Part shown: positions 40,350-52,274 of the stretch, in pieces
Layout of the letters: each line of letters begins with the position of its first letter
How positions within the stretch are numbered: position 1 is the stretch's first letter
Source of the DNA: a virus
Taxonomy: Duplodnaviria > Heunggongvirae > Uroviricota > Caudoviricetes
Strand: one strand, 5' to 3'
DNA: 58,308 bases
IMG/VR virus record: IMGVR_UViG_2778261696_000003
Notes under the pieces: model-generated
Told to the model about the DNA's origin: nothing
Database searches by the model: none
Seen by the model: the letters and a program-made list of their open reading frames with translations, nothing else
Position numbers and translations under genes: made by a program

Positions 40350-40519
40350 TGTATTTTTAAGTCACGAATGCTATCTTTTCGCATCATATTGACCTTTTAA
40401 TCGTTCAGGCTTATAGTTCCGCCGTCGTAGCAAATTCTGCGACCGGGTTTAGCAGCCTGAATGATTGTGCGGACAGCCGCAGATATCCGATATTGCGGTA
40501 TTTTTGTGTCCGTAAAACC

Positions 40520-40600
40520 GCGTTACGCCCAAATTATGGTGGGGCGTGATGGGGAGGCTTCGGCCTGCTGGTTTCACAATCGCCAGTCTGCTAACCCCGT
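40520..40600 (+). ncRNA. c4: Candidate c4-type antisense immunity RNA
   Basis: Segment carrying TCACAATC and CTGCTAAC, complementary to GATTGTG/GTTTAGCAG elements found both upstream (about 40447-40470) and downstream (about 40615-40650, covering the icd RBS). Boundaries approximate. Confidence 0.3.
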
Positions 40601-40664
40601 CACGTCCTGCCACCTGTTTAGCAGCGGGTAGCAGGTTGTTAAACCTGATTGTGAGGCCGTAACT

Positions 40665-42020: not shown

Positions 42021-42089
42021 CGTTTTCTAAGTGCAAAGAATCACCATTTCGAGCTGGTGATTGAAGGTTGATGCAAATTTGGAGAAAAA

Positions 42090-42890
42090 ATGCAACAAAC
42101 ATTCAATGCGGATATGAATATATCAAACCTTCATCAAAATGTCGATCCTTCAACCACTCTGCCTGTTATTTGTGGTGTTGAAATTACGACCGACCGCGCT
42201 GGCCGTTACAACCTTAATGCTCTACACAGAGCGAGCGGACTCGGTGCCCATAAAGCGCCAGCTCAATGGCTAAGAACGCTGTCAGCCAAACAGCTCATCG
42301 AAGAGCTTGAAAAAGAAACTATGCAGAATTGCATAGTTTCGTTCGAAGGCCGTGGCGGCGGCACTTTTGCCCATGAATTGCTCGCTGTGGAGTACGCAGG
42401 CTGGATTTCTCCCGCGTTTCGGCTGAAGGTAAACCAGACATTTATCGACTATCGAGCCGGAAGATTACAACCTGCTATTCCGCAGAGTCTCCCTGAAGCT
42501 CTCCGTTTGGCTGCCGACCTGGCAGAGCAAAAGCAACGGCTGGAGCAAAAAATGCTTATGGATGCACCTAAAGTCGAATTCGCCGAACGCGTTGCTACCG
42601 CCAGCGGGGTTCTAATCGGCAACTATGCCAAAGTGCTCGGTCTGGGCCAAAACTATCTCTTCACCTGGTTGCGTGATAACGGAATTCTGATCGCAACCGG
42701 TGAACGCAGGAACGTCCCCAAACAAGAATACATATCCCGTGGGTATTTCACCCTTAAAGAAACCGTGATCGATACAAGCAATGGAAGCAGGATTTCTTTC
42801 ACGACTCGTATAACCGGCAAAGGTCAGCAGTGGCTGATGAAGCGATTGCTTGATGCTGGTGTGCTGGTACCTGTCGCGGCAACGCGCTAA
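42090..42890 (+). CDS. kilA: KilA (KilA-N plus KilAC domains), 266 aa
   Basis: N-terminal KilA-N-like region (RYNLNALHRASGLGAHKAPAQWLRT), C-terminal ANT/KilAC region; size equals recalled P1 KilA. Confidence 0.8.
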   Translation: MQQTFNADMNISNLHQNVDPSTTLPVICGVEITTDRAGRYNLNALHRASGLGAHKAPAQWLRTLSAKQLIEELEKETMQNCIVSFEGRGGGTFAHELLAVEYAGWISPAFRLKVNQTFIDYRAGRLQPAIPQSLPEALRLAADLAEQKQRLEQKMLMDAPKVEFAERVATASGVLIGNYAKVLGLGQNYLFTWLRDNGILIATGERRNVPKQEYISRGYFTLKETVIDTSNGSRISFTTRITGKGQQWLMKRLLDAGVLVPVAATR

Positions 42891-42919
42891 CAGACGTAGT
42901 AAGAACCACCAGCATTGTA

Positions 42920-43765
42920 ATGCTGGCTAAAGTCACTTTCCTGAGCTGTATAACGATGAGCGATTTTACTTTTTCTGGCTATGAATTGGCCTGCTTTGTA
43001 ACACACTCCGGTCTATCCCGTAGCGCCGGGCATATCCTGTCGCAATGTGCAAATCTCGCGGCAACAACCAGTGAATACTTCATTCACAAGCCTCACCGCC
43101 TGATCGCGGCAGAAACTGGTTATAGCCAATCAACCGTCGTTCGTGCATTCCGTGAAGCTGTAAACAAAGGAATTCTATCTGTAGAGATTGTTATCGGCGA
43201 TCACCGTGAACGTCGCGCTAACCTGTACCGGTTTACACCATCCTTTTTGGCCTTCGCACAACAAGCCAAAAATGCGCTGATTGAAAGCAAATTAAAGATC
43301 TCTTCAGCGGCAACCAAGGTTAAAGCTGTTCTCGCTAAGACATTGGCTTTATTTAATTTTTTATCCACACCCCCATGTCAAAATGATACCCCCTCCCCCT
43401 GTCAGGATGACGTGGCAATAAAGAATAAGAAGTCACAAATTAAAAAAACAAAAAGATCAGTTTCCGGCGGTGCCGAAACGACCAGCCTCAAAAAACTGAC
43501 TTCATGGATCGCCGAGGCAAAAGCAAAGGCTGACAATCTGCGGTTATCCAAAAAACGCGCTCAAAAACATGAGTTCAAGCAGAAAGTAGAGGCGGCAGCG
43601 CGGAAATATGCTTACCTGAAGAACAAGCGTTCTCCTGATATTGGCGGGGTATCAAACTTCGATAATTTGCCGCATTGCATGACGGTAAACGAAGCTCTTA
43701 ATGCGGTTTTAGCCAAAAATAAAGATAACGAACAATGGGGTATACCGGCAGGATTTAGAGGGTGA
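42920..43765 (+). CDS. repL: Lytic replication initiator RepL, 281 aa
   Basis: Follows kilA under a C1 operator; size equals recalled P1 RepL. oriL expected inside the gene. Confidence 0.7.
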   Translation: MLAKVTFLSCITMSDFTFSGYELACFVTHSGLSRSAGHILSQCANLAATTSEYFIHKPHRLIAAETGYSQSTVVRAFREAVNKGILSVEIVIGDHRERRANLYRFTPSFLAFAQQAKNALIESKLKISSAATKVKAVLAKTLALFNFLSTPPCQNDTPSPCQDDVAIKNKKSQIKKTKRSVSGGAETTSLKKLTSWIAEAKAKADNLRLSKKRAQKHEFKQKVEAAARKYAYLKNKRSPDIGGVSNFDNLPHCMTVNEALNAVLAKNKDNEQWGIPAGFRG

Positions 43766-44061
43766 TAGATTGCTCTAATCTGGAGTCACCTGGCGTTTTC
43801 AGTTTGAGGTCGGAGATGCAATCTGATTTTTTACAGTTAGCGATCGCTTTTGCAGGATATGTTTGTATTGGCTTCTGTGTATACATGATCAGCCGAAAAA
43901 TGCTTGTCGATATCGACCGCAAAGAACAAGCAGAGGAGATCTTAGTATGGATTTTCTTTGGCGCGGTCTGGCCATTAGGGATCATGTTTGCTGCAACATT
44001 TCTTCTGATGTGGATATTCACCCTTCCAGGTGATTTCTATAGAAAAAAAGCCAGACATTGA
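43762..44061 (+). CDS. Small inner-membrane protein, 99 aa
   Basis: Two hydrophobic helices; 4-bp overlap with repL stop. Confidence 0.4.
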   Translation: MIDCSNLESPGVFSLRSEMQSDFLQLAIAFAGYVCIGFCVYMISRKMLVDIDRKEQAEEILVWIFFGAVWPLGIMFAATFLLMWIFTLPGDFYRKKARH

Positions 44062-44129
44062 TACAATCGTTGCGGGTGCTTGAGGCTATCTGCTTCAGGC
44101 ATTACCCGAAAAGCAGATAGAAGAAAGCC

Positions 44130-44200
44130 CCAGATAACATTACGCGTCCTGCAAGACGCTTAACATTAATCTGAGGCAATATCTATGCTTAGCATACGTA
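44130..44200 (-). ncRNA. sok: Candidate Sok-type antisense RNA of the hok/mok locus
   Basis: Minus-strand promoter-like TTGACC (plus coords 44225-44230) with GCTAAT -10-like hexamer, directed across the mok start/hok leader. Boundaries approximate. Confidence 0.3.
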
Positions 44201-44391
44201 GATTAGCCTCTTACCGACCAAAAGGTCAAGGAGAAGCAGGCTATGAAGCAGCAAAAAGCGATATTAATCGCTCTGATCGTCATCTGTTTAACCGTCATTG
44301 TGACGGCACTGGTAACGAGGAAAGACCTCTGCGAGGTACGAATCCGAACCGGCCAGACGGAGGTCACTGTCTTCACAGCCTACGAATCTGA
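44185..44391 (+). CDS. mok: Mok-like overlapping reading frame (translational coupling frame for hok), 68 aa
   Basis: ORF overlapping hok in another frame, as in hok/mok/sok loci. Confidence 0.45.
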   Translation: MLSIRRLASYRPKGQGEAGYEAAKSDINRSDRHLFNRHCDGTGNEERPLRGTNPNRPDGGHCLHSLRI

Positions 44392-44398
44392 AAGGTAA
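44243..44398 (+). CDS. hok: Hok/Gef-family type I toxin, 51 aa (absent from ORF track, under 60 aa)
   Basis: Manual translation MKQQKAILIALIVICLTVIVTALVTRKDLCEVRIRTGQTEVTVFTAYESER matches the Hok family pattern; AAGGAGAAG RBS before ATG. Confidence 0.8.
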   Translation: MKQQKAILIALIVICLTVIVTALVTRKDLCEVRIRTGQTEVTVFTAYESER

Positions 44399-44470
44399 GA
44401 GACCTGGCGGGGAGAGATCCTCGCCACTCTTCGTGTGTCAGGTATCCTCAATGCACCCTTTCCTCTCCAA

Positions 44471-44498
44471 ATAAAAAAGCTCCCGAAGGAGCTTTAAA
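44471..44498. terminator. Intrinsic terminator hairpin (GCTCC-CGAA-GGAGC flanked by A6/T-rich)
   Basis: Stem-loop with T-run on minus strand, downstream of minus-strand structural gene. Confidence 0.5.
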
Positions 44499-44514
44499 AT
44501 ACAAGGGATGACTC

Positions 44515-45024
44515 TTAATCCCACTCAATCCAGTTGTAGACGATACGAAGTGACGGGCGCACAGCGGCAGTCACATCTTCGGTACTAAAGTCGATTGCAT
44601 CACTGTAGATTTTGCAGTCCAACATTTCAATTGTTGTAGCAGCTTTTGTCACAGCGTTAACCCCGGAAGATTTGGATTCAGGGGTAGCAGCCATCGTGAT
44701 ATCAACATAGTCCTTCGCCGCAATGCGATCTTTAATGAACTGAAGAATATCGCCTTCGATAGTCTCCACGCACTGGACCTGGATTTCCCCTGAGTTTCGA
44801 ATTGGACCGTGCTGGTTGAACTTCACACCATTCGGACCATAGTCCTCCACATCCTCGCGGGTCATTTCAGGAATTTGCGACGTGCGAACCAGTACGCTGA
44901 TATCTTCATGGCCTGCAAAAGTGAGCTGGAATTCAGAAGATACCAGTCGTTCGCCTTTGGCCGCGTTGGCAGTATAGCGGCCCTTAATAAATTTACGGTT
45001 TCCCTTAGTGTTATTGTGCCCCAT
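44515..45024 (-). CDS. Phage tail structural protein (tube-like size), 169 aa
   Basis: Position in sheath/capsid operon; synteny. Confidence 0.4.
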   Translation of the reverse strand: MGHNNTKGNRKFIKGRYTANAAKGERLVSSEFQLTFAGHEDISVLVRTSQIPEMTREDVEDYGPNGVKFNQHGPIRNSGEIQVQCVETIEGDILQFIKDRIAAKDYVDITMAATPESKSSGVNAVTKAATTIEMLDCKIYSDAIDFSTEDVTAAVRPSLRIVYNWIEWD

Positions 45025-45035
45025 ATAAAATCCTT

Positions 45036-45617
45036 TTACTGGAACGCCCGAACAATATCGGAGCTGTTATATATCGAAGAACCGGTCAACTGGAGGTTGA
45101 CGGTGTTTTTCAGGAAATGTCCATTGCTGTCCCTGGGCGCATCGAGATCGAAACTTATGTCCTGGATAGCGACATCAATGATGTTGATCCGGCGACCAAT
45201 GTTTAGCGTCACACGCTCCGGGATTCGACCACCAATACTGGCATCTTTAAGTTCCGGGCTAATCATCGCTGACAATGCGGCGATAGCTCCTGAAACCTCC
45301 GTGAATGGGTCAAACAAAGCGATGAAAGTTACTGGCAGCGTGAAAGTCGGCGGTGTTCCCCCTTCCCAAACCATTAAGCTGTTCCAACGGGCAACCGACG
45401 TTGTTTCAGTACCAACCTGCGCAAAACCACTGAAGGCACCAGCAACAGATCCCATGGACATACCGGTAAACGGCGCTTCCCAATTCTGGGCCATGTTCAT
45501 TGCCGCTCCCTGGCTGATATATCCGGTAACCTGGTACTGAGAGTTCGTTAAAGTAACTTTCAGATATGGCGATACACCGTCAGCCTGGCTGTAAACCCCA
45601 TAAGGAATAGGTGCCAT
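45036..45617 (-). CDS. Phage tail/baseplate structural protein, 193 aa
   Basis: Synteny. Confidence 0.4.
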   Translation of the reverse strand: MAPIPYGVYSQADGVSPYLKVTLTNSQYQVTGYISQGAAMNMAQNWEAPFTGMSMGSVAGAFSGFAQVGTETTSVARWNSLMVWEGGTPPTFTLPVTFIALFDPFTEVSGAIAALSAMISPELKDASIGGRIPERVTLNIGRRINIIDVAIQDISFDLDAPRDSNGHFLKNTVNLQLTGSSIYNSSDIVRAFQ

Positions 45618-45652
45618 TCAAGTTAAAGGCCGGAGTTCTCCGGCCTCCTCCT

Positions 45653-46468
45653 TTAGCCAAGGCGCTTACGGCGCAGTTTCATTGACTTTTTGCGGGCAAG
45701 TTTTGCCGCGCCGGTCTGGGCTTTTCGACGCGCTTTTTTCAGCGCCGATTTTTGAGCCGCAGTCAGACGTTTTTTACGCAGGCGTTTACGGATGAGTTTG
45801 ATCTCACCGTTACGAACAACCTTCTTAAATGCTTCAGTCAGCATTTCATCAGAAGTGCCAGCAACAACAAACGCCGCTTCCAGTTCGTCGCGGTCGTCGC
45901 TATCTAAACCAGCGATAGAGGCACCAACATCAGCAGCTGCGTCGTCGTCTTCATCGTCAGCCAGTGCTTCGATCAGGTCATCATCTACACCGCATGCTGC
46001 GAGGAAGTCAGCAACATTTGCCCATGCTTCGTTATAGGCATCGTCCTGTTCTTCTGTAACTTCGGAGTCGTCGTCATCAGAGATACCAGCGATAGCCTGA
46101 ACGAAACCATCAAGGGAGTCGAAAGTCAGATCACCGCTATCAGCCCAGGCGAAAACGGCGTCGGCCGCATCACTCAACGCATTTTGCATAGCACTTCGAT
46201 TTGCAGCTTCCAGAATCATCTGGTGCGCCTGTTCGACGGTCCATTCTTTACCGTCTTTCCCTTCCAGGATTTGCTCAGGAGCCTGGGCAGATGGAACGTT
46301 ATCGTTAGTCTGTGCCGCCGGTTCCGGATTATTATTAATAACCGGATCTGTTGGCGGTTCAGCGCTTGCTCGGGCAGACTCCATCAGCTGCACAGGATCA
46401 GAGTTCAAAGCGAAACGAGACAGTCCATTCCCCAAAAATGCCCCGGATTGAAAAAAGTTTTTGCTCAT
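45653..46468 (-). CDS. Acidic phage protein with highly basic C-terminal tail, 271 aa
   Basis: Asp/Glu-rich core and KRLRKKRLTAAQKSALKKARRK tail; between sheath-like and tail genes. Confidence 0.4.
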   Translation of the reverse strand: MSKNFFQSGAFLGNGLSRFALNSDPVQLMESARASAEPPTDPVINNNPEPAAQTNDNVPSAQAPEQILEGKDGKEWTVEQAHQMILEAANRSAMQNALSDAADAVFAWADSGDLTFDSLDGFVQAIAGISDDDDSEVTEEQDDAYNEAWANVADFLAACGVDDDLIEALADDEDDDAAADVGASIAGLDSDDRDELEAAFVVAGTSDEMLTEAFKKVVRNGEIKLIRKRLRKKRLTAAQKSALKKARRKAQTGAAKLARKKSMKLRRKRLG

Positions 46469-46477
46469 TGTATTCCC

Positions 46478-48067
46478 TTACTTAATAAGCAGCGGTACGC
46501 CCTGGATACGACGGGCTACGCCAGTCGGGCAGCAGGCCCAGACTACTTCCCATTTATCGAATTCCGCCTGCGTAACTTTCAGCACATACGGTTCTGTACC
46601 GTCAGCATCAGGATCACGAGGAGCCACCAGAGCGCCGGAGGCGACAAAGCGATCTAAAAGTTTGGTCATCCCTTTAGTCAGGCCAGCCGCAGTAATACCG
46701 TCCGGGCTATGCTTCATCTGTCGGGCTAACTGGACAAAGAAACGGCTGATTGCATTCATCAGGGATGGGACGTGCTGGAAGTGCAGATAGTTATCCTGCG
46801 TGCAGCAAGTTAAAGCATCGTCGATGATCATCTGGCCAGAGGTGCCAACAGATACTTTATTGAGACGGCCCTTGACCATTGCTTCTTCGTCCGGGGTATC
46901 TTCCGGATACAGCGGTTGAATTGACGCACGAGCAATGACGGCACGTTCTTCACCAGCCGGTGAGTAATGCCAACCGCCGACATCAGAGTTTTTCTTGACG
47001 CCACGAGCTTTCGCCGCATACGCCACGCCAGACAGACCAAAGACCACACGGGATTGGGTCCATTTGTCTTTGCAGGAGAACGGGTAGTGATAGACAGCAC
47101 AGCTTACATAATCGGTACCAAGTAAACCGGTATCTTCAACAGCAGAGATCGCTTCCGTGTACGTCAATGTCGGTTTGACATCAAAGAAGCCATCAATCAG
47201 GCGATCTGCACAGATTTTACCTAATGCGGTGATAGCCGCATTGTCATAGCAGCCCAGGCCAAGAACAGCGGTGTACATGTACGGCGCATTATTCAGCACT
47301 TTAACCGCACGCAGGTACGCAGCGGTTGAGATTTTCGACTGATCGCCGTTGGTACCGCCAGTGAACGCCAACGATTTTTTGTTTGTTACTTTCGCTGTCG
47401 AAATCAGCTCTTCATTAACAACCGCGCGCAGATATTTAGAACGGGCTTCCAGAGCCGTAGGCAGATAACACAAGCGGCCCATGTCATCTTTCGCTTCTTC
47501 CGCCAAAGACACAGTGTGTGTCTCCAGGGTCGTTACCACGCCGAGCGAAGTCGTCTGGGTCAGTTTTAAGAGGAAGCGTTCATTACCCGCGCTGTCCGCT
47601 GTTGCCGTTTCGATGGTTAACTCACGGGTAGGTGAAATACACGGATCACCATCATCAACGTAGATAGCAAAGGCTTCGCCACTATCAAGTTCAATTTCAG
47701 AACCGTATGGCAACGCACTGTAAGCCGGTTCGCCTGATTCATCGAACATAATAATCGGGAACTTCGCATCATCCGGAACAGCGCGAACAACATAACCAGA
47801 CGTTTGCTGAATAGCTTCGTATACATGGCGAATTGGTTCGAACTGTGAGCCGGAAGACGGCTTCAGCGGTTCGCCGAGAACATCTTCGTAATTGGACTCA
47901 GTAACCGCAAGAACAGTAAACGGCTTGCCACGCGCAAATACGCCAATACCAGCCCATAAGCTGCTATTTAATGCAACACCGGTAGATAACGTCGCATCGG
48001 CATTGATCGGGCTAACCGCGACGCCGGATGCATTACCTAATGACTGTTGAATTGAATATTGAGACAT
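46478..48067 (-). CDS. Tail sheath protein candidate, 529 aa
   Basis: Size and position next to the capsid gene as recalled for P1 gene 22. Confidence 0.5.
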   Translation of the reverse strand: MSQYSIQQSLGNASGVAVSPINADATLSTGVALNSSLWAGIGVFARGKPFTVLAVTESNYEDVLGEPLKPSSGSQFEPIRHVYEAIQQTSGYVVRAVPDDAKFPIIMFDESGEPAYSALPYGSEIELDSGEAFAIYVDDGDPCISPTRELTIETATADSAGNERFLLKLTQTTSLGVVTTLETHTVSLAEEAKDDMGRLCYLPTALEARSKYLRAVVNEELISTAKVTNKKSLAFTGGTNGDQSKISTAAYLRAVKVLNNAPYMYTAVLGLGCYDNAAITALGKICADRLIDGFFDVKPTLTYTEAISAVEDTGLLGTDYVSCAVYHYPFSCKDKWTQSRVVFGLSGVAYAAKARGVKKNSDVGGWHYSPAGEERAVIARASIQPLYPEDTPDEEAMVKGRLNKVSVGTSGQMIIDDALTCCTQDNYLHFQHVPSLMNAISRFFVQLARQMKHSPDGITAAGLTKGMTKLLDRFVASGALVAPRDPDADGTEPYVLKVTQAEFDKWEVVWACCPTGVARRIQGVPLLIK

Positions 48068-48127
48068 AACTTTCCCTGTTATGCGCCCCGCACGGGGGCG
48101 CTATGTTAAACGGAGAACTTCCCCTGA

Positions 48128-49855
48128 TTACTCAGAGTCACCGGCATCAATCGTGTCGCCGCTAATGAAGTTAAGCCCGCCTTTTTTGGCCATTGTCAGC
48201 GTTACACGAGTGAAGTAATCAGCGCCGTTGCGTGGGTGCATATCGTTGATAGCCGAACCCCACAGCGTGGTACGGTTGACCAGCGCCGGAGTGGTCGGAT
48301 GCTGGAACGGGATGGCCGGGACAGCATCACCAGTCACGAAGCCTGCTTTACCCGGATTTTCATCACGGACGTAGCACAGCACATCCATCGAGCTGAACTG
48401 AATGTTCTCTGTCGTTAAGTTCTTACAAATACCAGCAGGTACTTCGTACACTTTCACGTTACCGAACAGGGTACCGATGTAGTGAACATACGGAGTCTGG
48501 ATATAGTCTTCGGCTGGCTGGAAGAAATCCTTCGGCAACTGTTTGAAGAAAGATGCTGCATCAGCACCAGCAAACATCCCCATCGCACCAGAAGATTTAA
48601 CGCGCTCAATAATGTCGCGATATACAGTCTGGAATTTGCCACGAATGATGGTTGCCCATACATCAAAGGACTGGTTAACCGGCAGAGCGATGTCAAAGGT
48701 GTCGGTCGCAAGAGTACGCCAGATCATGATGCGAAGACGCAGCATATCCTGTTCATGAGACAGGTATTCCTTCAGGGTGCGGAACTGTAGGGAACCCAGG
48801 TCCAGACCAAATTCACGCTGTGCTTCATACGCCGCCTGTACCGTGTGCTCAGCCGCGATAACGAACTGGCTTGGGAACAGGGTGTATTTCTTCATTTCGT
48901 GGTTGATCAGCGGGATCAGCTCAGGAGCGGCTTCAATATTGATTTCCGTCTCAATTGCGATCTCAGTGCCTTTATCCGGCGCTTTGGAGAACGACAGGGC
49001 AATCTGACCAATGTTGTAGTTCAGAGAGCAGGTAACAGTGATTTGCTCACCAGCAGCATTAGTAAACGAGTGAAGTAGGCTGCCGGAACCGTTATCAACA
49101 ACAGACTTAATACGGTTAACGTAGATATTAGTGCGACCTTTTCGGATTGGTACATTCTGGCCTTCGAAGTCTTCCATCTTGAAGGTTGCGGTTTTGCTGG
49201 TGCCATCGGAGCTTGCCACCAGCACATAGCGGCGGCGTAACTGGCTGTACACACCGACGGATTGCATGTCCAGAACATCACCAGCAGCATAAGAACCAAA
49301 AGAGGAACCTGCCACGTTAAAGACTTCATAGATGTCGGACTGGTCACGCGTAACCGGAATGAAGGTACACGCATCAGCGGTAGCTGCCCCCAACTGAACA
49401 GGCAGGATCATCGCGAGGAATAAAGGCAGACGCATAACACCGTCAGAAACGCTCATCATCTCTGCTGCGACGGATTCCAGCATCGCTTTATTAGTGGCAT
49501 CCATGCTATTGCGGGTGGACTCAATCAGGCAGTTTTCCAGCGTCTGGTGGCAGGAGGCCAGAATTTCCGGACGCGGCATAGATTTATGTGCTGCGGCGTA
49601 GTCAGCCAGTGCACTTGCCCACGCTGTAGCGATTTGAGCGGTGGCATTATCAGAGATACCCGCAAAAACCGGGTCTTTACGTGCAGCTTCAAGGATAGAT
49701 GCGGCACGCGCGGCATCATCTTTAATGAATTGGTTATCAGTACCGAACTGCGCAGTGCTTGCCCAGCCAAGCACAGCTTTAGAGCGTTTTGCGATATCTG
49801 CAATACGATTCTGGTATTCGCGTAAGTTACTCAATTTACTCTTCCTTAAACACAA
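48128..49855 (-). CDS. Major capsid protein candidate, 575 aa
   Basis: Position immediately before parS/parB as recalled for P1 gene 23; late promoter motif upstream. Confidence 0.5.
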   Translation of the reverse strand: MCLRKSKLSNLREYQNRIADIAKRSKAVLGWASTAQFGTDNQFIKDDAARAASILEAARKDPVFAGISDNATAQIATAWASALADYAAAHKSMPRPEILASCHQTLENCLIESTRNSMDATNKAMLESVAAEMMSVSDGVMRLPLFLAMILPVQLGAATADACTFIPVTRDQSDIYEVFNVAGSSFGSYAAGDVLDMQSVGVYSQLRRRYVLVASSDGTSKTATFKMEDFEGQNVPIRKGRTNIYVNRIKSVVDNGSGSLLHSFTNAAGEQITVTCSLNYNIGQIALSFSKAPDKGTEIAIETEINIEAAPELIPLINHEMKKYTLFPSQFVIAAEHTVQAAYEAQREFGLDLGSLQFRTLKEYLSHEQDMLRLRIMIWRTLATDTFDIALPVNQSFDVWATIIRGKFQTVYRDIIERVKSSGAMGMFAGADAASFFKQLPKDFFQPAEDYIQTPYVHYIGTLFGNVKVYEVPAGICKNLTTENIQFSSMDVLCYVRDENPGKAGFVTGDAVPAIPFQHPTTPALVNRTTLWGSAINDMHPRNGADYFTRVTLTMAKKGGLNFISGDTIDAGDSE

Positions 49856-49895
49856 GGCACTTGTGTGAATCCCTTTTCGGAAGAGATTTTATTGA

Positions 49896-49908
49896 AAGTC
49901 ACTTGTTG
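49896..49908 (-). promoter_or_regulatory. Candidate late promoter element upstream of capsid gene (minus strand reads AACAAGTGACT, then TAAAAT)
   Basis: Motif shared with sites at 9813 and 13546. Confidence 0.3.
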
Positions 49909-49965
49909 ACTTTCTCGTGACAAGCAATTTTTTTATTTTTTTCGGGAGTAGGGGCGGAAGGTAAA

Positions 49966-50056
49966 ATCCAAGGTGAAATCGTGGCGATTTCACCTTGAAA
50001 TTTTAGATGGATTTACTTTAAAAACAGTAGGTTAATAGTGAAATTTGAATGGCGAA
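49966..50056. other. parS: parS partition site (centromere) with ATTTCAC heptamer and TCGCCA hexamer boxes
   Basis: Inverted ATTTCAC heptamers around the TCGCCA hexamer, matching my recollection of P1 parS; directly downstream of parB. Confidence 0.75.
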
Positions 50057-50059
50057 AGT

Positions 50060-51061
50060 TTAAGGCTTCGGCTTTTTATCGAGGCTCTTTCTAAGGATAT
50101 GCCCAATCATCCTGTCGAGTTCTTCCTGTAGCTCTTTTGAAAGTCGATTAAACTCATAAGAAAATGCACGGCCTTTCACGCGTTTCCTTGCAAAGCGATC
50201 CTTGTCCTCAAATTTCCATAATTCAGTAACTACGGACTTATCTTTAGAACCTTTATCCGTGAGTAGTGAGGCTTCCTTTGTTATCAAGCGCAGGATTTTA
50301 TTTTTAACTTCATCTTCGGCCATTTCTTCAATGGATAAGATGTCGTTTATTTCCGGGGATATGTTTTGAATAAGCTGATCAAACTCTAAATTCTTGTTCC
50401 CCATTTCGTCGCCAACAGCACAAAGCGTTTTGTAGTCCGAAAAGGTTAATTCCGACTGCACAGGGAAAAGGGCGACTAATTCTTCCGGAGCACTCGCTGC
50501 CTGGAGAGCACGCGTGACCTTCGCCTGAGACAGCCCTTCTTTGGCTGCAATATCCTTCTGACTCATCCCATCATTTTTCATTCGCATCAAACGCAGACCT
50601 ATTTCTCGAATGCTGTGCTGCAATGCTGTCTGAACGTCTTTCGCTAAATTTTGCGCTTCCTGAACGCTGATCTCCTGGTCCGTGACTAAAACCCGCAACC
50701 CTACGTTCTCTAAGATGGCAGAAGCTCGACGCCGGGAACCATCCAAAATTTCAATTTTCCCTGTAGCCCGTCTAACACCTATTGCAGGGTAAAATTGCTG
50801 ATGCTTAATAGTGCTTCGGATACTTTTTAATGATTTTGGCGTAAGAGATGCCTGGTCACGCCCGTTGTTATGCTGATCAACAAAGGTATCGCTTTCTACC
50901 TGGTTCGGAGGTATTACCTCTTCAATAAATGTGGCCTGGCGACCAGTTGATAACTTGAATACCTGCTCGACTCGATCGCCAGAGGCTGAAGAACTATCAA
51001 ATCCGCTTAATATTGAAGGATTAAGGGTTCGCCCAATTGTTGGTCTGTTTTTCTTTGACAT
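50060..51061 (-). CDS. parB: Partition protein ParB, 333 aa
   Basis: Size and position after parA and before parS; HTH region present. Confidence 0.85.
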   Translation of the reverse strand: MSKKNRPTIGRTLNPSILSGFDSSSASGDRVEQVFKLSTGRQATFIEEVIPPNQVESDTFVDQHNNGRDQASLTPKSLKSIRSTIKHQQFYPAIGVRRATGKIEILDGSRRRASAILENVGLRVLVTDQEISVQEAQNLAKDVQTALQHSIREIGLRLMRMKNDGMSQKDIAAKEGLSQAKVTRALQAASAPEELVALFPVQSELTFSDYKTLCAVGDEMGNKNLEFDQLIQNISPEINDILSIEEMAEDEVKNKILRLITKEASLLTDKGSKDKSVVTELWKFEDKDRFARKRVKGRAFSYEFNRLSKELQEELDRMIGHILRKSLDKKPKP

Positions 51062-51077
51062 GGGGGGTTCTTACTCC

Positions 51078-52274
51078 TCAGTTAGATCTGATAAATTCAA
51101 TACGGTCAAAAACTGCTTTAGCAAAATCTTCCGCGGCAATTCGCGCGTTCTTCAATGCATCAGCACTACCAACATACGTTGCCGGGTTAGCTGAAATAAC
51201 AGTGTCAAAAGACTCGCCGCAACGTTCAAAACCGTCAAGGCGAGGGAGGACGACATCGAGCATATCCCCACCGAACACTTCTTTAGCCAGGCTATGGCAA
51301 TACTTATGATCTGCCTTGTTACTCAACTTGGACATAAAACCAATGTTAGTCGCAAGCTGGCACTCGCAGCCTTCATCCGAAATGAGTTTTACCAACTCAG
51401 GAAGGCGGGCAACGTATTTAAGCGATGAGTGGAAATCGACAGTTGCTGGCGGCAGAGGTGTAAACAGTATATTGGCCGAGGCCAAAGCATTTTTCAGGAA
51501 GGCGTCAAGGTGAGGACCACTATCAACGAGGATAAAGTCATAATCGCTCTTCAGCTTATCAATCACATTTTCTTTCAGGACAGCATGGATGTTCTGACCC
51601 GGTAGATGCTCATTGCACAGCTCTCTCCAATCGGATGCAATAAAGGCATCGTCAATCGACGCAGGCATAACGTCAACCCCAGGTACAACAGAAGGAACAA
51701 TAAACTCCTCTAACAGCTCTTCACGGCTTACATTCTGCAACATAGCCTGTGCAGATGTTGCGTTTACGATACCAATAGAGTGTTTATGGCTTAAAAACAT
51801 CGTTGCGGAAGATTGCGGATCAAGGTCAATAACCAGAATCCTTAAATCCTCCATAAGAAGATGAGGGTGAGCACGCATTGCATGCGCCAGAGAAACCGTC
51901 GATACAGTTTTTGACACACCGCCTTTAAGATTGGAGATGAAAATCACATACGCTTCGCTGTAGCGATCCCGGTATTTTGGCACTCCGCGATGTTCATATA
52001 TGTCAATGATGTTCTGAATTGACATCGCATATTTCATTGAAGAGCCAGCAGGGCGTTTATCGAAAACATAACCCTTTTCTTCCATTTCACTTACGGCATA
52101 GTCAACGTTCGCTCGAGTCAGTAGAGGCAATTTTGCCAGTGCCGCTTTCGCATAGACCTGGTAAAACTCGTTCGCGTGTAGCTCATCCTTTTGCAACTGT
52201 ACTTGTTCAGTCAGAACATTGAGCATTCTGTTTGCTCTTTGAGCAACCTTGTGAAGCTGGCTGGAATCACTCAT
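51078..52274 (-). CDS. parA: Partition ATPase ParA, 398 aa
   Basis: Deviant Walker A (KGGVSKTVSTV) and N-terminal extension typical of type Ia ParA. Confidence 0.9.
   Translation of the reverse strand: MSDSSQLHKVAQRANRMLNVLTEQVQLQKDELHANEFYQVYAKAALAKLPLLTRANVDYAVSEMEEKGYVFDKRPAGSSMKYAMSIQNIIDIYEHRGVPKYRDRYSEAYVIFISNLKGGVSKTVSTVSLAHAMRAHPHLLMEDLRILVIDLDPQSSATMFLSHKHSIGIVNATSAQAMLQNVSREELLEEFIVPSVVPGVDVMPASIDDAFIASDWRELCNEHLPGQNIHAVLKENVIDKLKSDYDFILVDSGPHLDAFLKNALASANILFTPLPPATVDFHSSLKYVARLPELVKLISDEGCECQLATNIGFMSKLSNKADHKYCHSLAKEVFGGDMLDVVLPRLDGFERCGESFDTVISANPATYVGSADALKNARIAAEDFAKAVFDRIEFIRSN

Follow-up and report, generated by a model that had tools for sequence, protein, structure and literature searches.

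A hok/mok/sok-family type I toxin-antitoxin cassette between repL and bplB of a P1-like plasmid prophage

The stretch of DNA analysed here, called the window throughout, comprises 58,308 nucleotides of a Caudoviricetes virus (IMG/VR record IMGVR_UViG_2778261696_000003). Directly after its repL gene lies a short locus, which a preliminary description, made from the letters alone, had taken for a hok/mok/sok type I toxin-antitoxin module. This identification turned out to be right in every part that can be tested on sequence. Peptide, overlapping frame and RNA leader alike proved to be real, far beyond what chance would produce. The locus is very probably a complete hok/sok-family cassette in a P1-like plasmid prophage, working by the mechanism described for plasmid R1 and for hokW-sokW of phage Sp5. 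Since all cis elements are intact and under structural constraint, this classical mechanism is the best explanation of what is seen.

The toxin gene itself, hok, extends over 44243..44398 on the plus strand and is preceded by a Shine-Dalgarno motif, AGGAG, about 9 nt 5' of its start. Its frame in the list of open reading frames (ORFs) translates into MKQQKAILIALIVICLTVIVTALVTRKDLCEVRIRTGQTEVTVFTAYESER, which is exactly the peptide read in the preliminary description as the product of a 51-codon Hok/Gef gene. Toxins of the Hok/Gef class are about 50 amino acids (aa) long; they carry a transmembrane helix at the N-terminus and are conserved towards the C-terminus. The 51-aa peptide matches the Pfam family HOK_GEF (PF01848) with E=1.3e-21 and 76.3 bits for a cut-off of 22, over model positions 2-42 of 42, as well as PHROG 251, 'MokW-like host killing', with E=1.9e-31. 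Its assignment to the Hok/Gef family is thus confirmed.

The RNA leader was recognised independently of the peptide. A scan of the whole window with Rfam, the check proposed in the preliminary description, gave three matches at the gathering threshold, namely RF01794 ('sok') and the C4 and a1/b1 target families of the immunity region considered further below. RF01794 matches 44074..44248 on the plus strand with 114.3 bits (gathering score 59, E=2.7e-25) and over its full length, model positions 1-157. The consensus of this model ends in the hok AUG, and it therefore describes the hok-sense leader despite its name of 'sok antitoxin'; being built in this sense, it gives matches on the strand opposite the actual Sok RNA. 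The same holds for the controls, which were likewise matched on the hok-sense strand (113.5 bits for hokW of 933W, 87.2 bits for an R1-type IncFII locus). An antisense gene on the plus strand, as the plus-strand 'sok' match might suggest, was rejected on these grounds.

The borders of the unit were delineated by comparing the window by blastn with 46 Hok-encoding loci, taken from contigs of one genome per species, plus 933W. Locus after locus, nucleotide homology begins at 44071/44072 and ends at 44458, which indicates that the conserved unit is the mRNA itself, with its leader, mok, hok and 3' untranslated region (UTR), at 44072..44458 on the plus strand. A putative hok promoter was picked up by a promoter scan at 44040..44067 on the same strand, with a -35 box TAGAAA, a 16-nt spacer and an extended -10 box TGaTACAAT (9 of 12 consensus positions, plus the TG). 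It ends 5-7 nt 5' of the first conserved mRNA base, and its TG motif overlaps the stop codon of an upstream 81-aa ORF. This promoter is not conserved in the chromosomal relatives, where homology starts at 44071/44072. The extent of 44100-44500 originally given for the locus thus needs a small correction: beginning with the hok promoter (44040), and with an mRNA start around 44072, the unit reaches to the end of the last conserved element at 44458.

The predicted fold of this RNA brings its two ends together. The minimum free energy (MFE) of 44072-44462 is -154.3 kcal/mol (z=-7.3), a stability that none of 100 shuffled sequences reached, and the MFE structure pairs 44074-85 with 44446-58. The 5' partner is the translational activator element, tac (44074..44085, plus strand, GGGUGCUUGAGG), which lies at the mRNA 5' end and aligns with GGCGCUUGAGG of the R1-type locus. 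The 3' partner is the fold-back inhibition element, fbi (44446..44458, plus strand, CCUCAAUGCACCC), which forms the last bases of the conserved unit. Further inside, the upstream complementary box, ucb (44203..44215, plus strand, UUAGCCUCUUACC), is an invariant block in 31 loci and is the same in the R1-type locus; its UAGCCUC is also complementary to the GAGGCUA of tac. Its downstream counterpart, dcb (44394..44403, plus strand, GGUAAGAGAC), spans the hok stop codon and is invariant in the alignment as well. The ucb-dcb helix (helix 7), in which six of the eight pairs never vary, is formed in both the full-length and the truncated folds. Just 3' of dcb stands a 3' UTR hairpin (44406..44425, plus strand) with the stem GGCGGGGA, the loop GAGA and the stem UCCUCGCC.

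These structural features were confronted with sequence variation in an alignment (A3) of 31 sequences from Escherichia, Shigella, Kluyvera, Citrobacter, Pantoea and Photorhabdus, onto which the MFE structure of the window was projected. Standard pairs occupy 87.1% of the cells as folded, as compared with 39-43% when the 3' partners are slid by 1-3 columns, although the percentage paired is inflated because the structure was taken from one member of the alignment. Less affected by this bias are the pairs changed on both sides, 37 as folded versus 14-16 with the partners slid, and the slid controls themselves. The observed covariation score was reached by none of 500 shuffles. The 3' UTR hairpin (helix 16) is paired in 88% of its cells, with two pairs changed on both sides. 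At the tac-fbi helix, the column pair 7/408 is UA in 18 loci and CG in 11, and the duplex formed by 18 nt at the 5' end with 26 nt at the 3' end amounts to -18 to -30 kcal/mol in 30 of the 31 loci, the exception being L012, a chromosomal copy whose 5' end is mutated. The fold-back pairing of tac and fbi shows compensatory changes. Most of these compensatory changes were supplied by Photorhabdus, which has many hok loci, some of them in tandem, as in Photorhabdus temperata (L029), with three leader copies within 1.3 kb (1354-2656). In a separate alignment with the R1-type locus, tac, ucb, the hok Shine-Dalgarno, the mok and hok starts and fbi all fall in register.

On the opposite strand, an antisense RNA of about 71-73 nt is predicted at 44121..44193, composed of an unpaired stretch at its 5' end, a long hairpin and the tail CUUUCUUCU. 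The 71-nt sokW annotated in 933W (L002, 1554..1624, minus strand), which sits within the RF01794 match on the opposite strand, aligns to window positions 44193 to 44123. The predicted Sok spans both the mok Shine-Dalgarno and the mok ATG. It folds at -31.3 kcal/mol (z=-5.2), as a hairpin plus a U-rich tail. The hairpin helix common to Sok and to its target site in the mRNA (sokT) avoids wobble pairs, which fill one of its 373 paired cells versus 374 of 2995 in the other helices of the 31 loci (Fisher p=4e-19, not corrected for phylogeny). Such an avoidance is to be expected if the helix forms on both strands, since a G-U pair on one strand is a C-A mismatch on the other.

The minus-strand promoter-like element noticed from the outset was located precisely at 44200..44229, with a -35 box TTGACC (44229..44224), an 18-nt spacer and a -10 box TAATCT (44205..44200), which places the start about 7 nt downstream, at about 44193. 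It occupies the position homologous to the sokW promoter, where 933W has TTGCCT-17-TAACCT. Hexamers are positioned alike in all 31 loci (TTGCCT or TTGACC at -35; TAACCT, TAATCT or CACTCT at -10). Experiments have established sokW as a 71-nt antitoxin; a 'pro-less' mutant lost the antitoxin activity, which was partly restored by sokW given in trans (PMC8621323). The bases altered in this mutant, as placed from primer YO-421, align with the -10 box of the window Sok promoter. A candidate Sok gene with its own promoter and terminator hairpin can thus be recognised in the window.

The third component is the mok (modulation of killing) leader ORF, at 44185..44391 on the plus strand, in agreement with the 68-codon mok-like frame initially described; it overlaps hok out of frame. 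Its Shine-Dalgarno, GAGG (44173-44176), lies 8 nt 5' of its ATG, and its start falls inside the Sok-complementary region, as judged from the ORF list and the alignment. The mok ATG precedes that of hok by 58 nt, a geometry also found in the R1-type locus. In 933W, the chromosomal loci and Photorhabdus, the distance is 57 nt and mok is in frame, which yields an N-terminally extended Hok of 68-70 aa; the 1-nt indel responsible (window 44226) switches both the frame of mok and the spacer of the Sok promoter, 17 versus 18 nt. Within alignment A3, mok is as short as 19 codons in two Escherichia species, E. ruysiae and E. whittamii. Searches of Pfam and NCBIfam with the Mok product returned no family match. 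Thisted and Gerdes are said to have concluded in 1992 that it is the act of translating mok that matters, and the missing protein family fits this accepted view. Coupling of hok translation to mok would be expected at the P1-like locus from this arrangement.

Peptide and leader thus both belong to known hok/sok families, and every cis element is present and conserved. The mechanism of R1 hok/sok is established knowledge and forms the basis of the steps proposed here, from which we infer the transcripts, their processing, the toxicity and the biological role. The weak promoter at 44040-44067 would give rise to a stable mRNA from about 44072, which, through tac-fbi and ucb-dcb pairing, would be neither translated nor bound by Sok in its full-length form. 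Slow trimming from the 3' end would strip off fbi and let the RNA refold, so that the mok start would become accessible; Hok would then be translated only through coupling to mok. The unstable Sok of about 71 nt (from 44193 to about 44121, opposite strand) would pair over the mok ribosome-binding site and start codon, which would block translation of mok and hok and mark the duplex for RNase III. If Sok synthesis were to end, because the plasmid prophage is lost or transcription is shut off, Sok would decay and the stored mRNA would be translated; the 51-aa Hok would then insert into the inner membrane and kill the cell. For hokW-sokW, toxicity, antitoxin activity and a partial dependence on RNase III and Hfq were demonstrated (PMC8621323).

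The element that carries the cassette can be assigned, from its gene content and nucleotide identity, to the P1 family of plasmid prophages (Punavirus). The window holds the C4/immI RNA, KilA-type antirepressors (42090-42890) and repL (42920-43765), and on the minus strand bplB, pmgG and genes 21-23. The flanks of the hok locus are 95-99% identical to reference P1 (NC_005856), and identity to Punavirus records is 99-100%. The two further Rfam matches are the P1 immI C4 antisense RNA at 40532-40617 (plus strand, 69.6 bits) and the a1/b1 targets at 40411-40463 (plus strand, 55.5 bits); their position upstream of the antirepressor genes is the one expected for a P1-family immunity region.

Homology to reference P1 stops at 43779, just 3' of ATTGCTCTAAT, and sets in again at 44473, with the hairpin that follows bplB. 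In between, 693 bp (43780-44472) stand in place of about 1.8 kb with rlfA, rlfB and pmgF (NC_005856 51580-53412), and contain the 81-aa ORF followed by the 0.4-kb hok/sok cassette. A comparison at this site found no hok between repL and bplB of NC_005856, where rlfA-rlfB-pmgF lie instead; the statement in the preliminary description that P1 has no hok/sok is thus correct for the repL-bplB site of this reference. The retained ATTGCTCTAAT (43769-43779) represents the first 11 nt of the C1 operator Orlf/Op55 and is held within ATTGCTCTAATCTGGAG (43769-43785), directly 3' of the repL stop. Given this retention, the 81-aa ORF, possibly with read-through into hok, might be under C1 control. This ORF (43816..44061, plus strand; 99 aa if read from a GTG at 43762) encodes a hydrophobic membrane protein and accompanies the cassette. 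It matches PHROG 3772, of unknown function (E=3e-54), is called a hypothetical protein by the annotation pipeline PGAP, and reached no family at threshold in a Pfam/NCBIfam search. A terminator-like hairpin (44018-44033) lies within its 3' end. At the other border, a P1-backbone hairpin with the stem AAAGCTCC, the loop TTCG and the stem GGAGCTTT (44476..44495) separates the convergent bplB and hok. A terminator scan called it for the minus strand only, as a strong bplB terminator; read in the direction of hok, its tail is UUUAAAAU, which makes it a possible but weak terminator.

The repL-bplB gap appears as a cargo hotspot of P1-like elements, with at least three fillings: rlfA-rlfB-pmgF in reference P1, the 81-aa ORF with hok/sok in the window, and the 81-aa ORF with a 198-aa minus-strand ORF (PHROG 7522, of unknown function) in other plasmids (L055, L056). 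In L055 (NZ_CP148411.1), positions 661-810 correspond to window 44060-44206 and represent an orphan hok leader with a sok remnant. As far as 44206 the two sequences are identical: L055 retains the hok promoter, tac, the DNA that codes for Sok and the Sok -10 box (RF01794, 94.7 bits), and from 44207 on the hok coding sequence and the Sok -35 box are replaced by the 198-aa ORF.

The cassette is widespread among relatives. PLSDB includes 507 plasmids with this repL; 262 plasmids show the order repL-ORF-hok-bplB over at least 80% of an 861-bp query, and in 255 the stretch from hok to fbi is intact, nearly always with 96-100% identity, so that about half of the P1-like plasmids in this database carry it. 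The arrangement is shared by six Punavirus-type phage records (phi456, Ro157c2YLVW twice, MH422554, MH445380 and MH445381). Copies 100% identical to the window bear the RefSeq/PGAP label 'hokD: type I toxin-antitoxin system toxin HokD', and GenBank record MH422554 ('Punavirus P1') labels the gene MokW. The locus was called hidden in the preliminary description, which is true with respect to an ORF-length filter and untrue with respect to public records. Annotated and common as it is in P1-like plasmids, the locus is already known at the annotation level and is an ordinary cassette, with nothing new about it. A preprint of 2026 about a P1-like plasmid refers to toxin-antitoxin modules of types I and II (PMC13596339), and a survey of Hok homologues found them enriched in prophages and large plasmids (10.1101/2025.08.07.668861). 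No experimental study of a hok/sok cassette in a P1-like element was found in the literature.

Outside this core set, a 16.7-kb contig of Kluyvera cryocrescens NBRC 102467 is 98.9% identical to the window over the hok unit and both flanks, an identity which implies that Kluyvera, too, harbours a P1-like element with this cassette. The same enterobacterial hok also turns up on very short contigs of unrelated genomes: one of 275 bp in Acinetobacter idrijaensis (L014; 99.6% nucleotide identity to the window), one of 431 bp in Xanthomonas pisi (L025; 87% nucleotide, 98% protein identity) and one in a metagenome-assembled genome (L050; 88% nucleotide identity); assembly contamination is the most likely source of these three, rather than a real occurrence. 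Partial matches in plasmids typed as IncHI1B/IncQ1 (H52) raised the possibility that the cassette moves alone, which was rejected, as these are P1-like backbones with IS1 and IS421.

The insertion sequence (IS) IS421, of the IS4 family, occupies the 3' UTR hairpin in about 40% of the hok-carrying PLSDB plasmids (16 of 40 evenly spaced rows among 481 PLSDB records with this hok). In NZ_CP042894.1 (L053, 4475-5814), it duplicates 11 bp, 44410-44420, 12-22 nt 3' of the hok stop. The insertion separates fbi from the hok mRNA; the window copy is uninterrupted. Pedersen and Gerdes reportedly noted in 1999 that IS elements lie directly downstream of several K-12 hok genes, an arrangement that the IS421 insertion resembles.

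Several observations weigh against a working cassette of the classical type. The presence of IS421 between hok and fbi in some 40% of carriers argues that the module is dispensable for P1-like elements, and reference P1 is stably maintained without it. When the 3'-truncated mRNA (44072-44422) was folded, its MFE structure had no tac-ucb helix, the alternative pairing expected once the 3' end is processed, and formed a local 5' hairpin instead. The terminator scan found no good intrinsic terminator on the plus strand 3' of fbi. The generic promoter scan did not call the Sok promoter, which is explained by its match to just 8 of the 12 sigma-70 consensus positions; the support for this promoter comes from homology and conservation, not from consensus strength. 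Lastly, the Hok peptide stays under the curated cut-offs of two NCBIfam Hok models (50.2 versus 73 bits).

The most probable role of the cassette would be post-segregational killing that backs up phd/doc, which suits a plasmid prophage of about single copy that already relies on phd/doc; a contribution to lysis at induction is also possible. A tblastn search of the window with P1 phd/doc sequences found neither. The same probes match CP027320.1, which is 100% identical to the window over the hok region, at 99-100%, and both genes are present there. The probes are thus valid, and the window simply omits the phd/doc part of its element. CP027320.1 was nevertheless rejected as the source of the window, as it is 99.7% identical over window 42038-58231 only and 96-98.6% over other segments. 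Since it has both modules, it is plausible that hok/sok is additional to phd/doc on the element of the window too, as the preliminary description had supposed.

A chiefly lytic function is a possible alternative, which we hold to be rather unlikely. C1 derepression would lead to the loss of Sok, Hok would harm the inner membrane early, lysis would be advanced and phage release would increase; a possible route is the collision of kilA-repL read-through with the convergent Sok promoter. Evidence for it comes from hokW-sokW, the closest homologue to have been characterised, with 86% nucleotide identity: after mitomycin C, a deletion mutant arrested growth about 40 min later and released half as much phage, and sokW vanished on induction (PMC8621323). 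Position is also in favour, as hok lies on the same strand directly downstream of kilA-repL and the 81-aa ORF, behind the retained first part of Orlf/Op55. However, the argument is drawn by analogy from hokW-sokW of Sp5, not from P1-like phages; P1 owns a holin, an antiholin and an endolysin and lyses well without hok; and the hairpin at 44018-44033 stands as a terminator-like barrier between the 81-aa ORF and hok. Lytic, addiction and exclusion roles are not mutually exclusive.

Abortive infection or phage exclusion seems improbable as the main function. Lytic superinfection would stop host transcription, Sok would decay and Hok would kill the cell before progeny are made, which would protect clonal lysogens and their resident prophage by cell death; transcription shut-off alone is indeed sufficient for the mechanism. 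R1 hok/sok is reported to exclude T4 weakly, yet the effect is small and was seen at high copy number. The survey of Hok homologues found no enrichment of hok beside defence systems (10.1101/2025.08.07.668861).

A more speculative proposal, to which we give little credence, is that the placement is itself functional. The cassette is co-oriented with the kilA-repL lytic operon and directly downstream of it, and the Sok promoter faces the operon; read-through from C1-repressed kilA-repL at induction would then silence Sok by collision and fire Hok as a timer of lysis or abortive infection. Leader/sok remnants such as that of L055 might, in turn, serve as anti-addiction elements between competing incompatible P1-like plasmids. 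Both ideas are drawn from gene geometry alone. Least credible, and very improbable, is that the locus is a decaying non-functional relic, like most E. coli K-12 chromosomal hok loci, carried in the cargo hotspot: the cargo of the gap does vary among P1-like elements, and in many relatives an IS separates fbi from the mRNA, or the leader survives without the hok coding sequence, but the window is intact throughout (both promoters, tac, Sok hairpin, mok, ucb, hok, dcb and fbi), its RNA folds as well as those of functional relatives, and the 255 plasmids preserve the unbroken cassette with high sequence identity.

The complete hok/sok cassette matters mainly for annotation, since ORF-length filters miss short type I toxin genes and antisense RNAs. 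It also places the element of the window in the large sub-population in which hok/sok replaces rlfA-rlfB-pmgF of laboratory P1 and which makes up about half of the P1-like plasmids in PLSDB. A second killer module may influence the ease with which P1-like phage-plasmids, for example those that carry resistance genes, are cured, and hok/sok may alter the lysis of such elements on induction, if the analogy with hokW-sokW holds.

Among known systems, hokW-mokW-sokW of the Stx2 phages 933W and Sp5 (VT2-Sakai) is very close: across the whole mRNA unit, nucleotide identity is 86%. Both have the same blocks of tac, Sok hairpin, ucb, dcb and fbi, the Rfam scores are nearly equal (114 versus 113.5 bits), and 46 of the 51 Hok residues are identical, as counted from the aligned sequences. 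Both cassettes are borne by temperate phages. The carriers nevertheless differ, a plasmid prophage for the window versus an integrated lambdoid phage for hokW, and the flanks are unrelated. The window has one base more than 933W (GGTCAAGG versus GG-CAAGG), and this extra base puts its mok out of frame (68 aa), whereas that of 933W is in frame (70 aa), and lengthens the Sok spacer from 17 to 18 nt. The Sok promoter hexamers also differ (TTGACC/TAATCT in the window, TTGCCT/TAACCT in 933W).

The hok/mok/sok (parB) locus of R1 and IncF plasmids shares with the window its architecture, element order, mok geometry, ucb, hok Shine-Dalgarno, the presence of a tac/fbi pair and the Rfam family. Its Hok is only 42% identical to that of the window, and the two loci have drifted apart in the sequences of the Sok hairpin and the 3' UTR. 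In the R1-type locus, fbi is directly followed by a GC-rich terminator hairpin that belongs to the locus itself, whereas the next hairpin in the window belongs to the P1 backbone.

The chromosomal hok loci of E. coli and Shigella (hokD/relF, hokA-E type) have 85-88% nucleotide identity to the window over the unit, and the copies of the L007 type share 47 of the 51 Hok residues with it, as counted from the aligned sequences. Several of the K-12 chromosomal copies are inactivated, as Pedersen and Gerdes are said to have described in 1999. Among the chromosomal copies sampled here, L013 is without leader, L012 has a mutated 5' end and L019 a replaced 3' end, whereas the window copy is complete. 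As to the name given to the window gene in RefSeq, hokD proper is a gene of the relBEF operon without a sok leader.

The last comparison is with phd/doc, the type II system of P1. Both phd/doc and hok/sok are systems for the maintenance of a plasmid prophage through post-segregational killing. They are otherwise dissimilar, since phd/doc relies on a protein antitoxin and a Fic-family kinase toxin, and the molecules and mechanism are unrelated to those of hok/sok.

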